From a virus (lineage: Duplodnaviria; Heunggongvirae; Uroviricota; Caudoviricetes), in the IMG/VR virus record IMGVR_UViG_2778261122_000006, positions 1 to 6,285 of that record: a stretch of DNA of 6,285 nt; one strand, written 5' to 3'. The translations under genes were made by a program, and so were the position numbers. The stretch's first letter is position 1. Every line of letters begins with the position of its first letter. The notes under the pieces were generated by a model, which saw only the letters and a list, made by a program, of their open reading frames with translations, was not told the DNA's origin and did not search any database. This document shows, one piece after another, positions 1 to 6,285 of this stretch.

Positions 1-369
1 ATGTCAAACATCAAAAAATACATCATTGATTACGACTGGAAAGCATCAATAGAAATTGAAATCGACCATGACGTAATGACAGAGGAAAAACTTCACCAGA
101 TTAATAATTTCTGGTCAGACTCTGAATACCGACTCAATAAACACGGCTCTGTATTAAATGCTGTATTAATCATGCTGGCGCAACATGCTCTGCTTATAGC
201 AATTTCAAGCGACTTAAATGCATATGGTGTTGTGTGTGAGTTCGACTGGAATGATGGAAATGGTCAGGAAGGATGGCCTCCAATGGATGGTAGTGAAGGA
301 ATAAGAATTACCGATATCGATACATCAGGAATATTTGATTCAGATGATATGACTATCAAGGCCGCCTGA
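1..369 (+). CDS. ea10: Ea10-like early-left operon protein (122 aa)
   Basis: ORF-track ORF, ATG 1-3, stop TGA 367-369. Protein MSNIKKYIIDYDWK... matches my recollection of lambda Ea10 (122 aa) and lies directly upstream of cIII as in lambda. Confidence 0.8.
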   Translation: MSNIKKYIIDYDWKASIEIEIDHDVMTEEKLHQINNFWSDSEYRLNKHGSVLNAVLIMLAQHALLIAISSDLNAYGVVCEFDWNDGNGQEGWPPMDGSEGIRITDIDTSGIFDSDDMTIKAA

Positions 370-441
370 GCGCGGCGTTACCGCATACCAATTACGCTTC
401 ACTCGAGGCGTTTTTCGTTATGTATAAATAAGGAGCACACC

Positions 442-606
442 ATGCAATATGCCATTGCAGGGTGGCCTGTTGCTGGCTGCCCTTCCGAATCTTTACTTGA
501 ACGAATCACCCGTAAATTACGTGACGGATGGAAACGCCTTATCGACATACTTAATCAGCCAGGAGTCCCAAAAAATGGATCAAACAATTATGGCTATCCA
601 GACTAA
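442..606 (+). CDS. cIII: CIII, lysogeny-promoting inhibitor of FtsH (HflB) protease (54 aa)
   Basis: Not in the ORF track (below length cutoff). ATG 442-444 preceded by AAGGAG at 430-435. My translation: [54 protein letters not shown], stop TAA 604-606; recognisable as lambda CIII. Confidence 0.9.
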   Translation: MQYAIAGWPVAGCPSESLLERITRKLRDGWKRLIDILNQPGVPKNGSNNYGYPD

Positions 607-718
607 ATTCACTATCGCCACTTTTATTGGCGATGAAAAGATGTTTCGTGAGGCCGTCGACGCTTATAAAAAATGGATATTAATACTGAAACTGAGATCA
701 AGCAAAAGCATTCACTAA
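575..718 (+). CDS. kil: Kil, host cell-division inhibitor (47 aa)
   Basis: ATG 575-577 preceded by AGGAG at 561-565. Product [47 protein letters not shown] is the C-terminal 47 aa of ORF-track ORF 449..718, whose upstream extension overlaps cIII and is not believed. Overlaps the cIII 3' end in another frame, as in lambda. Confidence 0.88.
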
Positions 719-793
719 CCCCCTTTCCTGTTTTCCTAATCAGCCTGGCATTTCGCGGGCGATATTTTCACAGCCATTTTCAGGAGTTCAGCC

Positions 794-1090
794 ATGAACG
801 CTTATTACATTCAGGATCGTCTTGAGGCTCAGAGCTGGGCGCGTCACTACCAGCAGATCGCCCGTGAAGAGAAAGAGGCAGAACTGGCAGACGACATGGA
901 AAAAGGCCTGCCCCAGCACCTGTTTGAATCGCTATGCATCGATCATTTGCAACGCCACGGGGCCAGCAAAAAAGCCATTACCCGTGCGTTTGATGACGAT
1001 GTTGAGTTTCAGGAGCGCATGGCAGAACACATCCGGTACATGGTTGAAACTATTGCCCGCCACCAGGTTGATATTGATTCAGAGGTATAA
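794..1090 (+). CDS. gam: Gam (GamS form), RecBCD nuclease inhibitor (98 aa)
   Basis: ORF-track [24 protein letters not shown]..., ATG 794 preceded by CAGGAG at 781-786. Recognised as lambda Gam short form. The upstream GamL extension is in a different frame here (see findings). Confidence 0.93.
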
Positions 1091-1095
1091 AACGG

Positions 1096-1881
1096 ATGAG
1101 TACAGCACTCGCAACGCTGGCAGGGAAGCTGGCTGAACGTGTCGGCATGGATTCTGTCGACCCACAGGAACTGATCACCACTCTTCGCCAGACGGCATTT
1201 AAAGGTGATGCCAGCGATGCGCAGTTCATCGCATTGTTGATCGTCGCCAACCAGTACGGCCTTAATCCGTGGACGAAAGAAATTTACGCCTTCCCTGATA
1301 AGCAGAACGGCATCGTTCCGGTGGTGGGCGTTGATGGCTGGTCCCGCATCATCAATGAAAACCAGCAGTTTGATGGTATGGACTTTGAGCAGGACAATGA
1401 ATCCTGCACATGCCGGATTTACCGCAAGGACCGCAATCATCCGATCTGCGTTACCGAGTGGATGGATGAATGCCGCCGCGAACCATTCAAAACCCGCGAA
1501 GGCAGAGAAATCACGGGGCCGTGGCAGTCGCATCCCAAACGGATGTTACGGCATAAAGCCATGATTCAGTGTGCCCGTCTGGCCTTCGGATTTGCTGGTA
1601 TCTATGACAAGGATGAAGCCGAGCGCATTGTCGAAAATACCGCATACACCGCAGAACGTCAGCCGGAACGCGACATCACTCCGGTTAACGATGAAACCAT
1701 GCAGGAGATTAACACTCTGCTGATTGCCCTGGACAAAACATGGGATGACGACTTATTGCCGCTCTGTTCCCAGATATTTCGCCGCGACATTCGCGCATCG
1801 TCAGAACTGACACAGGCCGAAGCAGTGAAAGCTCTTGGATTCCTGAAACAGAAAGCCACTGAGCAGAAGGTGGCAGCATGA
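1096..1881 (+). CDS. bet: Bet (Red-beta) single-strand annealing recombinase (261 aa)
   Basis: ORF-track [41 protein letters not shown]..., 261 aa; recognised as lambda Red-beta. Stop overlaps the exo start (ATGA). Confidence 0.97.
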
Positions 1882-2558
1882 CACCGGACATTATCCTGCA
1901 GCGTACCGGGATCGACGTGAGAGCTGTCGAACAGGGGGATGATGCATGGCACAAATTACGGCTCGGCGTCATCACCGCTTCAGAAGTTCACAACGTGATA
2001 GCAAAGCCCCGCTCAGGAAAGAAGTGGCCTGACATGAAAATGTCCTACTTCCACACCCTGCTGGCTGAGGTTTGCACCGGTGTGGCCCCGGAAGTTAATG
2101 CTAAGGCGCTGGCATGGGGAAAACAGTACGAGAACGACGCCAGAACCCTGTTTGAATTCACTTCCGGCGTGAATGTTACTGAATCCCCGATCATCTATCG
2201 CGACGAAAGTATGCGCACCGCCTGCTCTCCCGATGGTTTATGCAGTGACGGCAATGGCCTTGAGCTGAAATGCCCGTTTACCTCCCGGGATTTCATGAAG
2301 TTCCGGCTCGGTGGTTTCGAGGCCATAAAGTCGGCTTACATGGCCCAGGTGCAGTACAGCATGTGGGTGACACGAAAAGATGCCTGGTACTTTGCCAACT
2401 ATGACCCGCGTATGAAGCGTGAAGGACTGCATTATGTCGTGGTTGAGCGGGATGAAAAGTACATGGCGAGTTTTGACGAGATGGTGCCGGAGTTCATCGA
2501 AAAAATGGACGAGGCACTGGCTGAAATTGGTTTTGTATTTGGGGAGCAATGGCGATGA
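1878..2558 (+). CDS. exo: Exo (Red-alpha) 5'-3' dsDNA exonuclease (226 aa)
   Basis: ORF-track [50 protein letters not shown]..., 226 aa; recognised as lambda exonuclease. Start overlaps the bet stop by 4 nt. Confidence 0.97.
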
Positions 2559-2737
2559 AGCATCCTCACGATAATATCCGGGTAGGCGCGATCACTTTCG
2601 TCTACTCCGTTACAAAGCGAGGCTGGGTATTTCCCGGCCTTTCTGTTATCCGAAATCCCCTGAAAGCACAGCGGCTGGCTGAGGAGATAAATAATAAACG
2701 GGGAGCTGTATGCACAAAGCATCTCCCGTTGAGTTAA
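2555..2737 (+). CDS. Small early-left hypothetical protein, lambda orf60a-like (60 aa)
   Basis: ORF-track ORF 2549..2737 ([21 protein letters not shown]...). The third codon, ATG 2555-2557, has GGGGAG (2541-2546) at about 8-nt spacing and gives exactly 60 aa, so I place the start at 2555. Overlaps the exo stop. Confidence 0.7.
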
Positions 2738-2901
2738 GAACGAGTATCGAGATGGCACATAGCCTCGCTCAAATTGGAGTCAGGTTTGTGCCAATTCCAG
2801 TAGAAACAGACGAAGAATTTCATACGTTAGCCGCATCCCTTTCACAAAAGCTGGAAATGATGGTGGCGAAAGCAGAAGCAGATGAGAGAGACCAGGTATG
2901 A
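2710..2901 (+). CDS. Small early-left hypothetical protein, lambda orf63-like (63 aa)
   Basis: ORF-track [66 protein letters not shown], 63 aa, GGGAG at 2701-2705. Overlaps the 3' end of the preceding ORF by 28 nt in another frame. Confidence 0.7.
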   Translation: MHKASPVELRTSIEMAHSLAQIGVRFVPIPVETDEEFHTLAASLSQKLEMMVAKAEADERDQV

Positions 2902-2977
2902 CAACCACTGAATGCATTTTTCTGGCAGCGGGCTTCATATTCTGTGTGCTTATGCTTGCCGACATGGGACTTGTTCA

Positions 2978-3193
2978 ATGACACCTCAGCAAGAAAACGC
3001 CCTTCGCAGTATTGCCCGTCAGGCTAATTCTGAAATCAAAAAAGCCAGACAGCAGTTTCCGGATAAAAACGTCGATGACATTTGCCGTAGCGTACTGAAG
3101 AAGCACCGCGAAACGGTAACGCTGATGGGATTCACACCGACTCACTTAAGTCTGGCAATTGGCATGTTAAACGGCGTTTTTAAGGAACGGTGA
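2978..3193 (+). CDS. Hypothetical protein (71 aa)
   Basis: ORF-track ORF 2912..3193. The internal ATG at 2978 (MTPQQENALRSIARQANSEIKKARQQFPDK...) is my preferred start because the N-terminal 22 codons from 2912 have no RBS and read as non-protein-like (MHFSGSGLHILCAYACRHGTCS). Function unknown; start uncertain. Confidence 0.55.
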   Translation: MTPQQENALRSIARQANSEIKKARQQFPDKNVDDICRSVLKKHRETVTLMGFTPTHLSLAIGMLNGVFKER

Positions 3194-3213
3194 ACATGAA
3201 AAGCAAAATCATC

Positions 3214-3236
3214 AGGGAGCTACAGGCTCCTTTTTT
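3214..3236 (+). terminator. Candidate intrinsic terminator after the 71-aa ORF
   Basis: GGAGC (3216-3220), loop TACAG, GCTCC (3226-3230), then TTTTTT (3231-3236). Short GC stem plus T-run, 23 nt after the stop at 3193. Confidence 0.45.
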
Positions 3237-3291
3237 ATTATTCGCATTCACCCTCAAGCGTATTAACCAACAATTCAGGGATTAATGAAAG

Positions 3292-3513
3292 ATGGCAGAC
3301 ATCATTGATTCAGCATCAGAAATTGAAGAATTACAGCGCAACACAGCAATAAAAATGCGCCGCCTGAACCACCAGGCTGTATCTACCACTCATTGTTGTG
3401 AGTGTGGCGATCCGATAGATGAACGAAGACGACTGGCCGTTCAGGGTTGTCGGACTTGTGCCAGTTGCCAGCAAGATCTGGAGCTTATCAGTAAACAGAG
3501 AGGTTCGAAGTGA
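3292..3513 (+). CDS. TraR/DksA-family C4 zinc-finger protein (73 aa), likely RNA-polymerase secondary-channel regulator
   Basis: ORF-track ORF MADIIDSASEIEELQRNTAIKMRRLNHQAVSTTHCCECGDPIDERRRLAVQGCRTCASCQQDLELISKQRGSK. Cys35-x2-Cys38-x17-Cys56-x2-Cys59 matches the DksA/TraR C4 spacing; size is typical of phage and plasmid TraR-like proteins. Confidence 0.75.
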   Translation: MADIIDSASEIEELQRNTAIKMRRLNHQAVSTTHCCECGDPIDERRRLAVQGCRTCASCQQDLELISKQRGSK

Positions 3514-3665
3514 GCGAAATTAACTAGAAGCCAAAGATAAAATCATCGCTGAGCAGGAGAAAATCGCTAACGGAGAAAAGACAGTAAGTCAGTATATGAA
3601 AACCGCATGATATCATCAGATAAAAATCGGTCGTAAAGCGAAATATTAATACCAGAATAAACGAG

Positions 3666-3689
3666 TCGAGGTAAATTATATTACCTCGA
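3666..3689 (-). terminator. Perfect 9-bp inverted repeat between convergent genes; candidate terminator for the reverse-strand membrane gene
   Basis: TCGAGGTAA (3666-3674), loop ATTATA, TTACCTCGA (3681-3689). Lies 35 nt beyond the reverse-strand stop at 3724-3726; the reverse-strand RNA downstream is moderately U-rich (CUCGUUUAUUCUGG). No T-run on the + strand. Confidence 0.4.
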
Positions 3690-3723
3690 TAAATTAACTA
3701 AAACTTGCCCGCTATATACTATC

Positions 3724-4302
3724 TCATTCAGTATCATCACGCGCGGTCTGTGCATATGTCACTACCGCACCTAATGTATTAATTTTCTTTTCAACATAGA
3801 TAATATTATCGTACTCATAATTGCCATACGGATAGCAAATGCGAATATTCTCATGTAGATCGGGGTCATCCACCTCAGCTCCAGAACAACTTTTTGAACT
3901 ACCGGAAGTATACCGATACGGTGCAACATAAGACGATGTCTCTCCAGGCAAAAAATAAGTTAGTGTTGTAAGGGGTATAATCAGAAAAAATCCAGAAAAT
4001 ATGCATATCCCTGCATAAACCTTAAGGTATGCTGACAGACTCTTCCAGCCGCTTTGTTTTACTATCCCCTTCTTAACCCAAAACAGAGATAACAGAAAAG
4101 CTATTCCCATGCTAAACAGAATGTAATAGTGGGATATACTCTGATTAAGAAACGTGACCCTGTAGATATCTGCCCGCCACCAGAAGAAAAGGAAAATAAA
4201 GATCAGCCCTGAAACTGTCATGCAAATCAAATAAGGATACGAATCTTTTTTCATGTTTAGCGCCCATAAAATTTTTCCTGCCCGGACAAATTTACCATCC
4301 AT
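3724..4302 (-). CDS. AT-rich accessory (moron) integral membrane protein, three predicted TM helices plus acidic C-terminal domain; function unknown
   Basis: ORF-track reverse ORF 3724..4347, whose first codon is GTG. ATG candidates are at 4302 (MDGKFVRAGK...), 4254 (MKKDSYPY...) and 4221; none has a strong SD, so the start is uncertain. Hydrophobic segments LICMTVSGLIFIFLFFWW, YYILFSMGIAFLLSLFWV and VYAGICIFSGFFLIIPLTTLTYFL, with Lys-rich loops. GC is about one-third by eye, versus over 50 percent in flanking genes. Confidence 0.7.
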   Translation of the reverse strand: MDGKFVRAGKILWALNMKKDSYPYLICMTVSGLIFIFLFFWWRADIYRVTFLNQSISHYYILFSMGIAFLLSLFWVKKGIVKQSGWKSLSAYLKVYAGICIFSGFFLIIPLTTLTYFLPGETSSYVAPYRYTSGSSKSCSGAEVDDPDLHENIRICYPYGNYEYDNIIYVEKKINTLGAVVTYAQTARDDTE

Positions 4303-4528
4303 TTTTTGCGCAGAAAATAGCTCATTACTTACTGCACAATAATACACAAAATTGCGTAAATTTTTTGCATGGATTTTAGCTCTTTCAGCCGACGTTTAAG
4401 GGGTAAAGAGCATTTCCTAAAAGCAACTGACCAACCCAACAGAATGGGCTACCGCTTACGTTGAGAGCAAAAAAGTGTATAGCAGCAATGAACAGCATCC
4501 TCGCACTGACGGGGATTTCTTTTATCTG

Positions 4529-4553
4529 AGCTCGCTACGGCGAGTTTTGTTTT
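4529..4553 (+). terminator. Candidate intrinsic terminator or attenuator immediately upstream of the 114-aa gene
   Basis: CTCGC (4531-4535), loop TACG, GCGAG (4540-4544), then TTTTGTTTTA (4545-4554). The T-run is on the + strand only and runs into the GGAGA RBS of the ORF starting at 4567. Confidence 0.4.
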
Positions 4554-4566
4554 ATGGAGACAAGAA

Positions 4567-4911
4567 ATGTCAGATTTGGCTATGAAGGTTTTGAAATGGC
4601 AATCAACTGGCGATGTCGGCATCAGTAGCGCAACTCTTGCCTCAATCGCATGTGGCCTGAAAAAGAATATCTATGGTCATCACTTCGGCGCTCCCCATGA
4701 CGCAGCAGACTTTCGGCGATGCGTTGCACTTGTTGAGCAGATTCCAGAAATCAGAGATTCATTCGACAAGGTTGCAAAGCGCGTTCCGGCATTCAAAGGA
4801 ATCCTCAACGAATGGGATTCACTCGTTGCTCTGTTGAAGTCTGAAATGAAGACGTACGGGAACAAAGCACCAGAGACTTACAGAAGAATCAGCGAGCTAC
4901 GCAAGGACTAA
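4567..4911 (+). CDS. Hypothetical protein (114 aa), accessory gene upstream of xis
   Basis: ORF-track ORF MSDLAMKVLKWQSTGDVGISSATLASIACGLKKNIYGHHFGAPHDAADFRRC..., GGAGA (4556-4560) 6 nt before ATG 4567, stop TAA 4909-4911. No TM segments and no family I can name. Occupies the position taken by ea8.5 in lambda but is not that protein by length. Confidence 0.75.
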   Translation: MSDLAMKVLKWQSTGDVGISSATLASIACGLKKNIYGHHFGAPHDAADFRRCVALVEQIPEIRDSFDKVAKRVPAFKGILNEWDSLVALLKSEMKTYGNKAPETYRRISELRKD

Positions 4912-4967: not shown

Positions 4968-4991
4968 GCCGCATCAATGCGGCTTTTTCTT
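4968..4991 (+). terminator. Intrinsic terminator upstream of xis
   Basis: Perfect 6-bp stem GCCGCA (4968-4973), loop TCAA, TGCGGC (4978-4983), then TTTTTCTT (4984-4991). Textbook hairpin plus T-run. Confidence 0.6.
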
Positions 4992-5003
4992 GCGTGTAAT
5001 TGC
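4990..5003 (+). promoter_or_regulatory. CII-binding site TTGC-N6-TTGC of a pI-type (int) promoter
   Basis: TTGC (4990-4993), GTGTAA, TTGC (5000-5003): the direct-repeat motif recognised by lambda CII, positioned over the xis start region as at lambda pI. The -10 and transcription start could not be confidently assigned by eye. Confidence 0.65.
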
Positions 5004-5015
5004 GGAGACTTTGCG

Positions 5016-5234
5016 ATGTACTTGACACTTCAGGAGTGGAACGCACGCCAGCGACGCCCAAGAAGCCTTGAAACAGTTCGTCGATGGGTACGCGAGTGCA
5101 GGATATTCCCTCCTCCGGTTAAGGATGGAAGAGAGTATCTGTTCCACGAATCAGCGGTAAAGGTTGACTTAAATCGACCAGTAACAGGTAGCCTTTTGAA
5201 GAGGATCAGAAATGGGAAGAAGGCGAAGTCATGA
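5016..5234 (+). CDS. xis: Excisionase Xis (72 aa)
   Basis: MYLTLQEWNARQRRPRSLETVRRWVRECRIFPPPVKDGREYLFHESAVKVDLNRPVTGSLLKRIRNGKKAKS is recognisable as lambda-type Xis. GGAG (5004-5007) precedes ATG 5016. The ORF-track start at 4977 lies inside the upstream terminator hairpin and is rejected. The 3' end overlaps the int start by 23 nt. Confidence 0.93.
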   Translation: MYLTLQEWNARQRRPRSLETVRRWVRECRIFPPPVKDGREYLFHESAVKVDLNRPVTGSLLKRIRNGKKAKS

Positions 5235-6285
5235 GCGCCGGGATTTACCCCCTAACCTTTATATAAGAAACAATGGATATTACTGCTACAGGGACCCAAG
5301 GACGGGTAAAGAGTTCGGATTAGGCAGAGACAGAAGGATAGCAGTTTCAGAGGCTATTCAGGCCAATATTGAGTTGCTATCTGAGAACAGGCGTGAGTCA
5401 CTGATAGACAGGATTAAAGGCGCTGACGCAATCACTCTTCATGTGTGGCTTGACCGATATGAAACAATTCTCAGCGAGAGGGGCATCAGACCGAAAACTC
5501 TACTCGACTACGCCAGCAAAATCAGGGCAATCCGAAGAAAATTGCCGGACAAACCGCTCACTGACATATCAACGAAAGAGGTGGCTGCAATGCTAAACAC
5601 CTACGTAGCAGAAGGTAAAGCGGCTTCCGCAAAATTAATCAGGTCAACCCTTGTTGACGTTTTTCGTGAGGCAATAGCCGAGGGGCATGTGGCAACGAAT
5701 CCGGTAACAGCAACCCGCACAGCAAAATCAGAAGTAAGGCGTTCAAGACTGACAGCTAATGAATATGTCGCGATTTACCATGCAGCCGAACCGCTCCCAA
5801 TCTGGCTGAGGCTGGCAATGGATTTGGCTGTCGTTACAGGGCAGAGAGTAGGCGATTTATGCAGAATGAAATGGTCAGACATAAACGACAACCATCTTCA
5901 CATTGAGCAGGGTAAAACAGGGGCTAAGCTCGCCATTCCGCTGATGCTAACGATTGACGCGCTCAATATCTCATTGGCTGATACACTACAGAAATGCAGG
6001 GAGGCCAGCGGCAGTGAAACTATAATCGCATCAAAGCATCACGATCCGCTTTCCCCGAAAACAGTATCGAAGTATTTTACAAAGGCGAGAAATGCATCTG
6101 GACTCTCATTTGATGGAGACCCGCCAACATTCCATGAACTGCGTAGCCTGTCAGCGAGGCTATACCGAAACCAGATTGGCGATAAGTTTGCTCAACGTCT
6201 TCTCGGGCATAAATCAGATTCAATGGCGGCGCGGTATAGGGACAGCCGTGGACGGGAATGGGACAAAATTGAAATCGACAAATGA
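5212..6285 (+). CDS. int: Lambda-family tyrosine integrase Int (357 aa)
   Basis: ORF-track ORF MGRRRSHERRDLPPNLYIRNNGYYCYRDPRTGKEFGLGRDRR... with the lambda Int arm-binding N-terminus. Catalytic-motif contexts are present: GQRVGDLC (Arg), HELRSLSARLY (His/Arg), LLGHKSDSMAARYRD (His and the Tyr nucleophile). Stop is the last codon of the window. Confidence 0.97.
   Translation: MGRRRSHERRDLPPNLYIRNNGYYCYRDPRTGKEFGLGRDRRIAVSEAIQANIELLSENRRESLIDRIKGADAITLHVWLDRYETILSERGIRPKTLLDYASKIRAIRRKLPDKPLTDISTKEVAAMLNTYVAEGKAASAKLIRSTLVDVFREAIAEGHVATNPVTATRTAKSEVRRSRLTANEYVAIYHAAEPLPIWLRLAMDLAVVTGQRVGDLCRMKWSDINDNHLHIEQGKTGAKLAIPLMLTIDALNISLADTLQKCREASGSETIIASKHHDPLSPKTVSKYFTKARNASGLSFDGDPPTFHELRSLSARLYRNQIGDKFAQRLLGHKSDSMAARYRDSRGREWDKIEIDK

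Follow-up and report, generated by a model that had tools for sequence, protein, structure and literature searches.

The window analysed here, a 6,285-nucleotide stretch of a Caudoviricetes genome (IMG/VR record IMGVR_UViG_2778261122_000006), contains a short open reading frame (ORF) that a first-pass annotation had described as a TraR/DksA-like zinc-finger gene carried in a phage early operon. This locus raises the question of what such a protein does for the phage that carries it: whether it belongs to the TraR family, whether it is likely to act on host RNA polymerase (RNAP) and to what end, and whether it sits among defence or anti-defence genes.

A six-cysteine protein encoded in a lambdoid early-left operon

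The ORF (3292..3513 including the stop, + strand) begins with ATG, ends with a TGA at 3511-3513, and encodes a 73-aa product (MADIIDSASEIEELQRNTAIKMRRLNHQAVSTTHCCECGDPIDERRRLAVQGCRTCASCQQDLELISKQRGSK). Six cysteines can be read off the translation (positions 35, 36, 38, 53, 56, and 59), and four of them form the zinc-ligand pattern Cys35-x2-Cys38-x17-Cys56-x2-Cys59, i.e., exactly the C-x2-C-x17-C-x2-C spacing listed in the first-pass annotation, with Cys36 and Cys53 as extra residues. In an alignment with F TraR, both proteins start with the same N-terminal motif, D3-I-I-D6-S-A8 in the protein studied here. This DxxDxA motif has been defined previously (PMC9239242), and reaches the RNAP active-site region in TraR. 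The gene and its parts are laid out as follows:

3292..3513 including stop, + strand: orf73 orthologue, a 73-aa TraR-family C4 zinc-finger protein (ORF list, profiles, and identity)
3298..3315, + strand, codons 3-8: DIIDSA, the DxxDxA motif at the tip of the N-terminal helix (alignment and published lambda mutants)
3394..3468, + strand, codons 35-59: globular C4 zinc domain, which also contains R46/R47 and Cys53, a residue specific to the clade (translation; Pfam match at residues 33-64)
3460..3504, + strand, codons 57-71: predicted C-terminal helix (AlphaFold model)

The window corresponds to the early-left (pL) operon of a lambdoid phage, written in the direction of transcription. From 5' to 3', it runs through ea10, the cIII region, gam, bet, exo, orf60a, orf63, an orf61-like ORF, a tiny ORF, and orf73, followed by a minus-strand membrane ORF, a 114-aa ORF, xis, and int. 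The genes from ea10 to orf61 upstream, as well as xis and int downstream, are on the same plus strand as orf73. In the source prophage, represented by two E. coli contigs (L083 and L084) that are 99.98% identical to the whole window, cII, cI, and N lie further upstream, so that the proposed location in a phage early operon is confirmed both by the pL gene order from ea10 to int and by the genes preceding it. The elements surrounding orf73 are:

429-487, + strand: cIII thermoregulator element (Rfam Lambda_thermo, 88.5 bits)
2549..3193, + strand: conserved exo-xis block upstream of orf73 (same order in the lambda and 434 annotations)
2549-2737, + strand: orf60a (DUF1317 Pfam match)
2710-2901, + strand: orf63 (DUF1382 Pfam match)
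2975-3193, + strand: orf61-like 71-aa ORF (PHROG 303)
3190-3285, + strand: tiny 31-codon ORF, annotated in phage 434 as a 29-aa CDS
3510..3527, + strand: ea22 start remnant, whose GTG overlaps the orf73 stop and which reads MSEIN followed by TAG (collinearity; lambda ea22 starts with MSEINSQ)
3724-4347, - strand: membrane ORF converging on orf73, 207 aa from a GTG, matching only PHROG 1416 (unknown function)

The Rfam search returned the cIII thermoregulator element as its sole match in the window, and nothing at or near orf73. The tiny ORF shares the frame of orf73, with TAA TGA between them, and immediately 5' of orf73 it includes a terminator-like hairpin (3214-3232), after which the + strand reads TTTTTATTATT, a T-run. 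If this hairpin is functional, orf73 expression would need N antitermination. The hairpin might correspond to lambda tL3. In Red plasmids, tL3 is placed immediately 3' of exo.

Pairwise BLAST comparisons showed that the window is 97.5% identical to lambda over positions 1-3525 and 98.25% identical to phage 434 over positions 1-4569. Lambda collinearity stops at 3525, 12 nt beyond the orf73 stop, which marks a mosaic joint: ea22 and ea8.5 are absent from the window, and a 434-type module (3526-4566; G+C content of 38.7% vs 48.5%) is found in their place. Among 81 related viral loci, 28 carry this 434-type module and 9 the lambda-type module. When the whole window is considered, the closest cultured phage is 434, at 93.5% along its entire length, 77% of the window has a match in lambda, and the best match among complete E. 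coli genomes reaches 97.4% identity. Some part of the window is matched in 4290 of 5426 complete E. coli genomes, a count that refers to the whole-window search and not to orf73 alone.

Profiles and predicted fold indicate a TraR-family protein

Profile searches detected the similarity to the DksA/TraR family that the first-pass annotation had proposed. The protein matches Pfam PF01258 (zf-dskA_traR) over residues 33-64 with 36.8 bits, above the gathering cut-off of 24.9 (E 3.9e-9), and PHROG 54 ("DksA-like zinc-finger protein") over residues 1-71 with an E-value of 2.5e-26. For the NCBIfam TraR family TIGR02419, the match extends over residues 3-64 (E 7.9e-15) and scores 55.2 bits against a cut-off of 59.7. 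All these matches are much stronger than expected by chance. We considered whether this near-miss indicated a failed TraR-family membership, and dropped this reading after calibration: lambda Orf73 scores 54.7 bits and F TraR 80.5 bits. Since the validated lambda Orf73 is also below the cut-off, a sub-cut-off score is uninformative for the protein studied here, and the TIGR02419 cut-off is conservative for the Orf73 clade. Meanwhile, the equivalog profile for F-type conjugal TraR (NF010268) yielded 25.2 bits, far under its cut-off of 108. The protein is a TraR homologue rather than an F-type TraR proper, and its gene sits in a phage pL operon, not in a tra operon. The remaining Pfam matches (C1_1, RecO_C, and DUF7830) were weak, with E-values of 0.05-0.14.

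A sequence search against the PDB matched E. coli YbiI (2kgo) and F-plasmid TraR (5w1s/6n57), including RNAP-bound cryo-EM entries, and a direct BLASTP comparison with F TraR gave 32% identity (E 2e-9). We also built an AlphaFold2 model from a 36-sequence alignment, which is of moderate confidence (mean pLDDT 68). This model displays a helix at residues 8-28, a small globular middle, and a second helix at residues 57-71, i.e., one N-terminal helix without a coiled coil. Together with the length of only 73 aa, this single predicted N-terminal helix agrees with the earlier statement that the long coiled coil of DksA is lacking. The top Foldseek match of the model against the PDB is RNAP-bound TraR (6n57_M; probability 1.00, TM 0.52, 71 columns), followed by DksA, TraR, YbiI, and DksA2, and all of the top nine matches are chains of the DksA/TraR family. 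None of the Foldseek E-values is better than 0.011, a weak significance that is expected for a query of only 73 residues. Pipelines in public use label such genes "TraR/DksA family transcriptional regulator".

Relationship to lambda Orf73, TraR, and DksA

Based on sequence comparison, we identify the protein as an orthologue of lambda Orf73 encoded in an E. coli lambdoid prophage. Lambda Orf73 is likewise 73 aa long and identical at 69 of 73 positions (94.5%), and the substitutions that lead from the lambda protein to this one (I30V, A32T, V49A, and E61Q) are all conservative. Positions 30 and 32 fall in the linker between helix and finger, position 49 in a loop of the zinc domain, and position 61, an Ala in TraR, in the C-terminal helix, so that all four avoid DxxDxA (D3, D6, and A8), R46/R47, and the four zinc ligands. 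The two proteins share all six cysteines, DxxDxA, R46/R47, and the C-terminal helix. V30, A49, and Q61 are often found in other lambdoid phages, and at position 49 it is lambda, with its Val, that has the rare state. Gene position is shared as well, lambda orf73 being located after orf61 with its stop overlapping the GTG of ea22, whereas the 3' neighbours differ: ea22 follows in lambda, and the 434-type module, on the opposite strand, follows in the window. In phage 434, CPT_434_37 ("zinc finger domain protein", OL657226) is identical to the protein at 70 of 73 positions, and this phage carries the same downstream 434-type module as the window, but a different xis/int module.

F TraR is also 73 aa long and, as in the TraR complexes 5W1S and 6N57, consists of an N-terminal helix, a C4 zinc globule, and a C-terminal helix. 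The alignment of the two proteins (~31-32% identity) places D3/D6/A8 on D3/D6/A8, R46/R47 on R48/R49, and Cys35/38/56/59 on Cys37/40/58/61, i.e., the DxxDxA motif, the arginine pair, and the zinc ligands with their spacing are all aligned, in line with the TraR-type assignment made initially. In TraR, contacts with the rim helices and beta' Si3 have been reported for R48/R49. By analogy, the helix at codons 57-71 is probably the equivalent of the TraR helix contacting beta Si1. The protein differs from F TraR by a helix-to-finger linker that is 2 residues shorter, and by the extra Cys36 and Cys53. Functionally, the IC50 of lambda Orf73 on rRNA promoters is similar to that of TraR, and both are ppGpp-independent, but they differ in activation: TraR stimulates host and tra promoters, and lambda Orf73 has at most a weak activating effect on the promoters tested. 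The two genes also differ in their carrier, a phage early operon for Orf73 and a conjugation operon for F TraR.

The resemblance to E. coli DksA is more restricted. DksA has the same zinc finger, the same binding site on RNAP, and two tip aspartates near the active site, but its 151 aa include a coiled coil, and its full activity depends on ppGpp. Orf73 matches only the C-terminal half of DksA, and acts alone and at lower concentration.

Conservation and selection

A scan of viral contigs identified >580 loci encoding a close relative of the protein. We analyzed allelic variation and pN/pS for 82 of these loci and the window, which included 26 distinct alleles. Across these alleles, 18 synonymous and 8 non-synonymous changes were observed, 15 of 23 variable sites were at third codon positions, and the mean pairwise pN/pS was ~0.07, indicating that orf73 is truly protein-coding and that purifying selection on it is strong.

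Residue-level conservation was evaluated by aligning 36 full-length relatives, whose identity reaches as low as 58%. D3, D6, A8, C35, C53, C56, Q60, E64, and K68 are invariant in these relatives, C38, R46, R47, and C59 are nearly invariant, and all of these residues are present in the protein. According to a modelling review (PMC8614690), the hallmarks of these proteins are DxxDxA, the C4 cysteines, an acidic residue in the C-terminal helix, and ExxRK/ExxRL. The two extra cysteines show opposite patterns: Cys53 (codon at 3448-3450) is invariant in the 36 Orf73-clade proteins and replaced by Val in TraR and YbiI, whereas Cys36 (codon at 3397-3399) varies freely across the relatives (C/I/S/E/A/G). 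The one unusual residue is Thr32, which is Ala in at least 90% of the 36 relatives and aligns with the non-conserved Val34 of TraR. T32 is absent from the 82 viral loci, yet is found in many E. coli assemblies, and the exact 73-aa protein likewise occurs in many E. coli assemblies.

Proposed mechanism and biological role

We consider it very likely that this protein is an Orf73-type TraR homologue, expressed from pL, which would bind the RNAP secondary channel, inhibit rRNA and ribosomal-protein promoters without ppGpp, slow the host, and raise phage yield. In this mechanism, infection or induction would be followed by transcription of orf73 from pL, along with the rest of the early-left operon, and Orf73 would bind host RNAP directly, without touching DNA. 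The N-terminal helix would enter the secondary channel and bring the aspartates of DxxDxA close to the active site, the globular domain with its bound zinc would occupy the rim of the channel, and the beta lobe insertion Si1 would be touched by the C-terminal helix, these contacts presumably matching those seen for TraR by cryo-EM. RNAP conformation would be altered such that promoters with short-lived open complexes, i.e., rRNA and ribosomal-protein promoters, are strongly inhibited without ppGpp. The expected outcome would be slower host growth, resources kept off new ribosomes, and a phage yield several-fold larger. At this locus, gene identity, family membership by sequence and fold, the retention of the needed residues, purifying selection, and operon position are direct observations.

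Lambda Orf73 has been characterized experimentally by Gopalkrishnan et al. (mBio 2022; PMC9239242), who purified it along with four further phage TraR homologues, all five of which complemented a dksA deletion on induction. Lambda Orf73 inhibited rrnB P1 without ppGpp with an IC50 of ~50 nM, like TraR, also inhibited rpsT P2 without ppGpp, competed with DksA for RNAP, and bound RNAP at the DksA site; with D3N or D6N, it inhibited rrnB P1 and rpsT P2 much less well (PMC9239242). Expression from pL slowed host growth, and pL induction brought rrn leader RNA down to 29% and rpsT mRNA to 45%, with the dnaA promoters weakly affected in vivo, while lysogens carrying an in-frame orf73 deletion or D3A/D6A produced 3-4 fold less phage after mitomycin C (PMC9239242). 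The tested lambda lytic promoters were unaffected, and thrABC, argI, and rpoH P3 were activated weakly if at all (PMC9239242). The biochemistry and physiology of the protein studied here would be those of this 94.5%-identical lambda protein, with the present allele (V30, T32, A49, and Q61) expected to act alike.

These lambda data bear directly on what was first proposed for the locus. An RNAP secondary-channel regulator acting without ppGpp fits lambda Orf73 well, but the accompanying suggestion that such a protein would "reprogram" host transcription is slightly overstated, as activation is weak if present at all (PMC9239242). The host-takeover reading is upheld by the lambda orthologue, which inhibits rrnB P1 and rpsT P2, slows growth, and raises yield (PMC9239242). 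The tests named in the first-pass annotation, namely TraR alignment, rrnB P1 transcription, and growth inhibition, are already published for lambda Orf73, and all were positive (PMC9239242).

One alternative, which we regard as possible though somewhat doubtful, retains the same RNAP mechanism but assigns to orf73 a main role in biasing infection toward lysogeny and host survival, rather than in lytic yield. The physiological role is in dispute: in work reviewed in PMC8614690, orf73 deletion in lambda and Stx phages lowered both post-infection host survival and lysogenisation efficiency, and another group reported that orf73 reduces lytic yield on infection, with orf73 and ea22 classed as pro-lysogenic. 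In a further study (PMC3824215), a plasmid-borne exo-xis region is described as impairing lysogenisation and altering induction. Against a mainly pro-lysogenic role, the 3-4 fold loss of phage after mitomycin C was obtained in single-copy lysogens with the in-frame deletion and with D3A/D6A, and the authors attributed the discrepancy to the inactivation method and/or the start of lytic growth, arguing that their own changes should be non-polar (PMC9239242). Since the assays differ (infection vs induction), the pro-lysogenic and lytic-yield readings are not mutually exclusive.

A second alternative, which we see as quite unlikely, would make host DNA replication initiation the main target (the "bin" phenotype), either via the dnaA promoters or via origin supercoiling. 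Earlier work cited in PMC9239242 implicates orf73 and its neighbours (the orf73-ea22-ea8.5-orf55 cluster) in a block of host replication initiation, and dnaA P2 and P1 were inhibited in vitro by TraR and Orf73 at high concentration, with IC50s of ~420 nM and 1.7 uM (PMC9239242). However, these values are ~8- to 30-fold above the one for rrnB P1, and ea22 and ea8.5 are absent from the window, so that this locus lacks the complete four-gene cluster of the earlier work. Both the lysogeny bias and the replication block concern the biological role of Orf73 more than its mechanism.

Finally, C4 zinc ribbons are common and short, and the weak C1_1, RecO_C, and DUF7830 matches could be read as those of a zinc-ribbon protein that shares only the C4 motif with TraR and binds DNA or a protein other than RNAP, but such a target is effectively excluded by a TraR similarity that goes beyond the zinc finger (the DxxDxA N-terminus, R46/R47, and the C-terminal helix), by profile matches of near full length (residues 1-71 for PHROG 54 and 3-64 for TIGR02419), and by the binding of the near-identical lambda protein to RNAP at the DksA site.

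Within the favoured reading of Orf73 as an RNAP-binding TraR homologue, the cysteine pattern suggests a refinement, which we nevertheless hold to be unlikely: the Orf73 clade might be an inhibition-only variant of TraR, in which the invariant Cys53 reshapes the zinc domain or adds redox sensitivity, and thereby changes the contact with beta' Si3. If true, this could explain why lambda Orf73 inhibits yet barely activates, and might provide a link to the role of the exo-xis region reported in peroxide-triggered Stx prophage induction. An altered globular domain or altered folding of Orf73 had previously been suggested, as a speculation, to result from the two extra cysteines (PMC9239242). The angle added here is only mildly new, in that an invariant Cys53 and a variable Cys36 narrow the published speculation to a single residue.

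Neighbouring genes and minor observations

The gene family, the mechanism, and the effect on phage yield are already known through the 94.5%-identical orthologue, so that the discovery value of this locus is small and its practical value is one of annotation. Because orf73 is unannotated in the lambda RefSeq entry, despite its experimental characterization, and is widespread among E. coli genomes, spotting it makes prophage early regions easier to interpret, among them those of Shiga-toxin phages, whose exo-xis block influences induction. In RefSeq NC_001416, lambda orf73 is located at ~30392-30613 on the minus strand, between the annotated orf61 and ea22 (3792-4013 in our lambda reference locus, L001).

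The first-pass annotation had further suggested that regions encoding such regulators often neighbour defence or anti-defence genes, and this expectation received no support in the window. PADLOC returned 0 matches for the seven window proteins searched (ea10, orf60a, orf63, the orf61-like ORF, orf73, the 207-aa minus-strand ORF, and the 114-aa ORF). For the two ORFs downstream of orf73, Pfam returned nothing, PHROGs only families of "unknown function", and tblastn against phages only "putative membrane protein" or "hypothetical", leaving the membrane ORF without assignable function. Defence or anti-defence genes beside orf73 are thus unsupported by PADLOC, Pfam, PHROGs, and tblastn, although the membrane ORF may yet have such a role.

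The minus-strand ORF at 3724-4347 is called at 176-192 aa in other assemblies, includes three hydrophobic stretches, and has its own terminator-like hairpin at 3689-3666. It resembles a moron, and is possibly expressed in the lysogen.

Two small frame differences were observed upstream of orf73. The orf61 region of the lambda reference (L001 3381-3693) has one extra A, i.e., A7 vs A6 in the window and in 434. Of 76 related loci with a readable site, 75 have the A6 form, the common form being the 71-aa ORF of PHROG 303, and the 61-aa "orf61" of lambda seems to be the product of a frameshift that changes its C-terminus. For gam, the long 138-aa form (673-1090, + strand) is out of frame through one extra base at 777 vs lambda and 434, and the short Gam (98 aa, 794-1090) is intact. 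Because 34 related loci share this sequence, the extra base is a common variant rather than an error in sequencing.

At the other end of the window, the xis/int module (4968-6285, + strand) is 75-80% identical to lambda and 434, with ~80% identity to 434 beyond 4542. In several genomes, the chromosomal region beyond int contains torS and gnsA-ymcE-csp, and since the prophage adjoins these genes, its attachment site is unlike that of lambda.

Outside the window, contig L083 includes a 180-aa ORF and a DUF1828 protein between cI and N (1652-2958), and an Nmad5-domain protein (PF18757) between N and ea10 (3907-4530). These ORFs may represent accessory or defence-related cargo.
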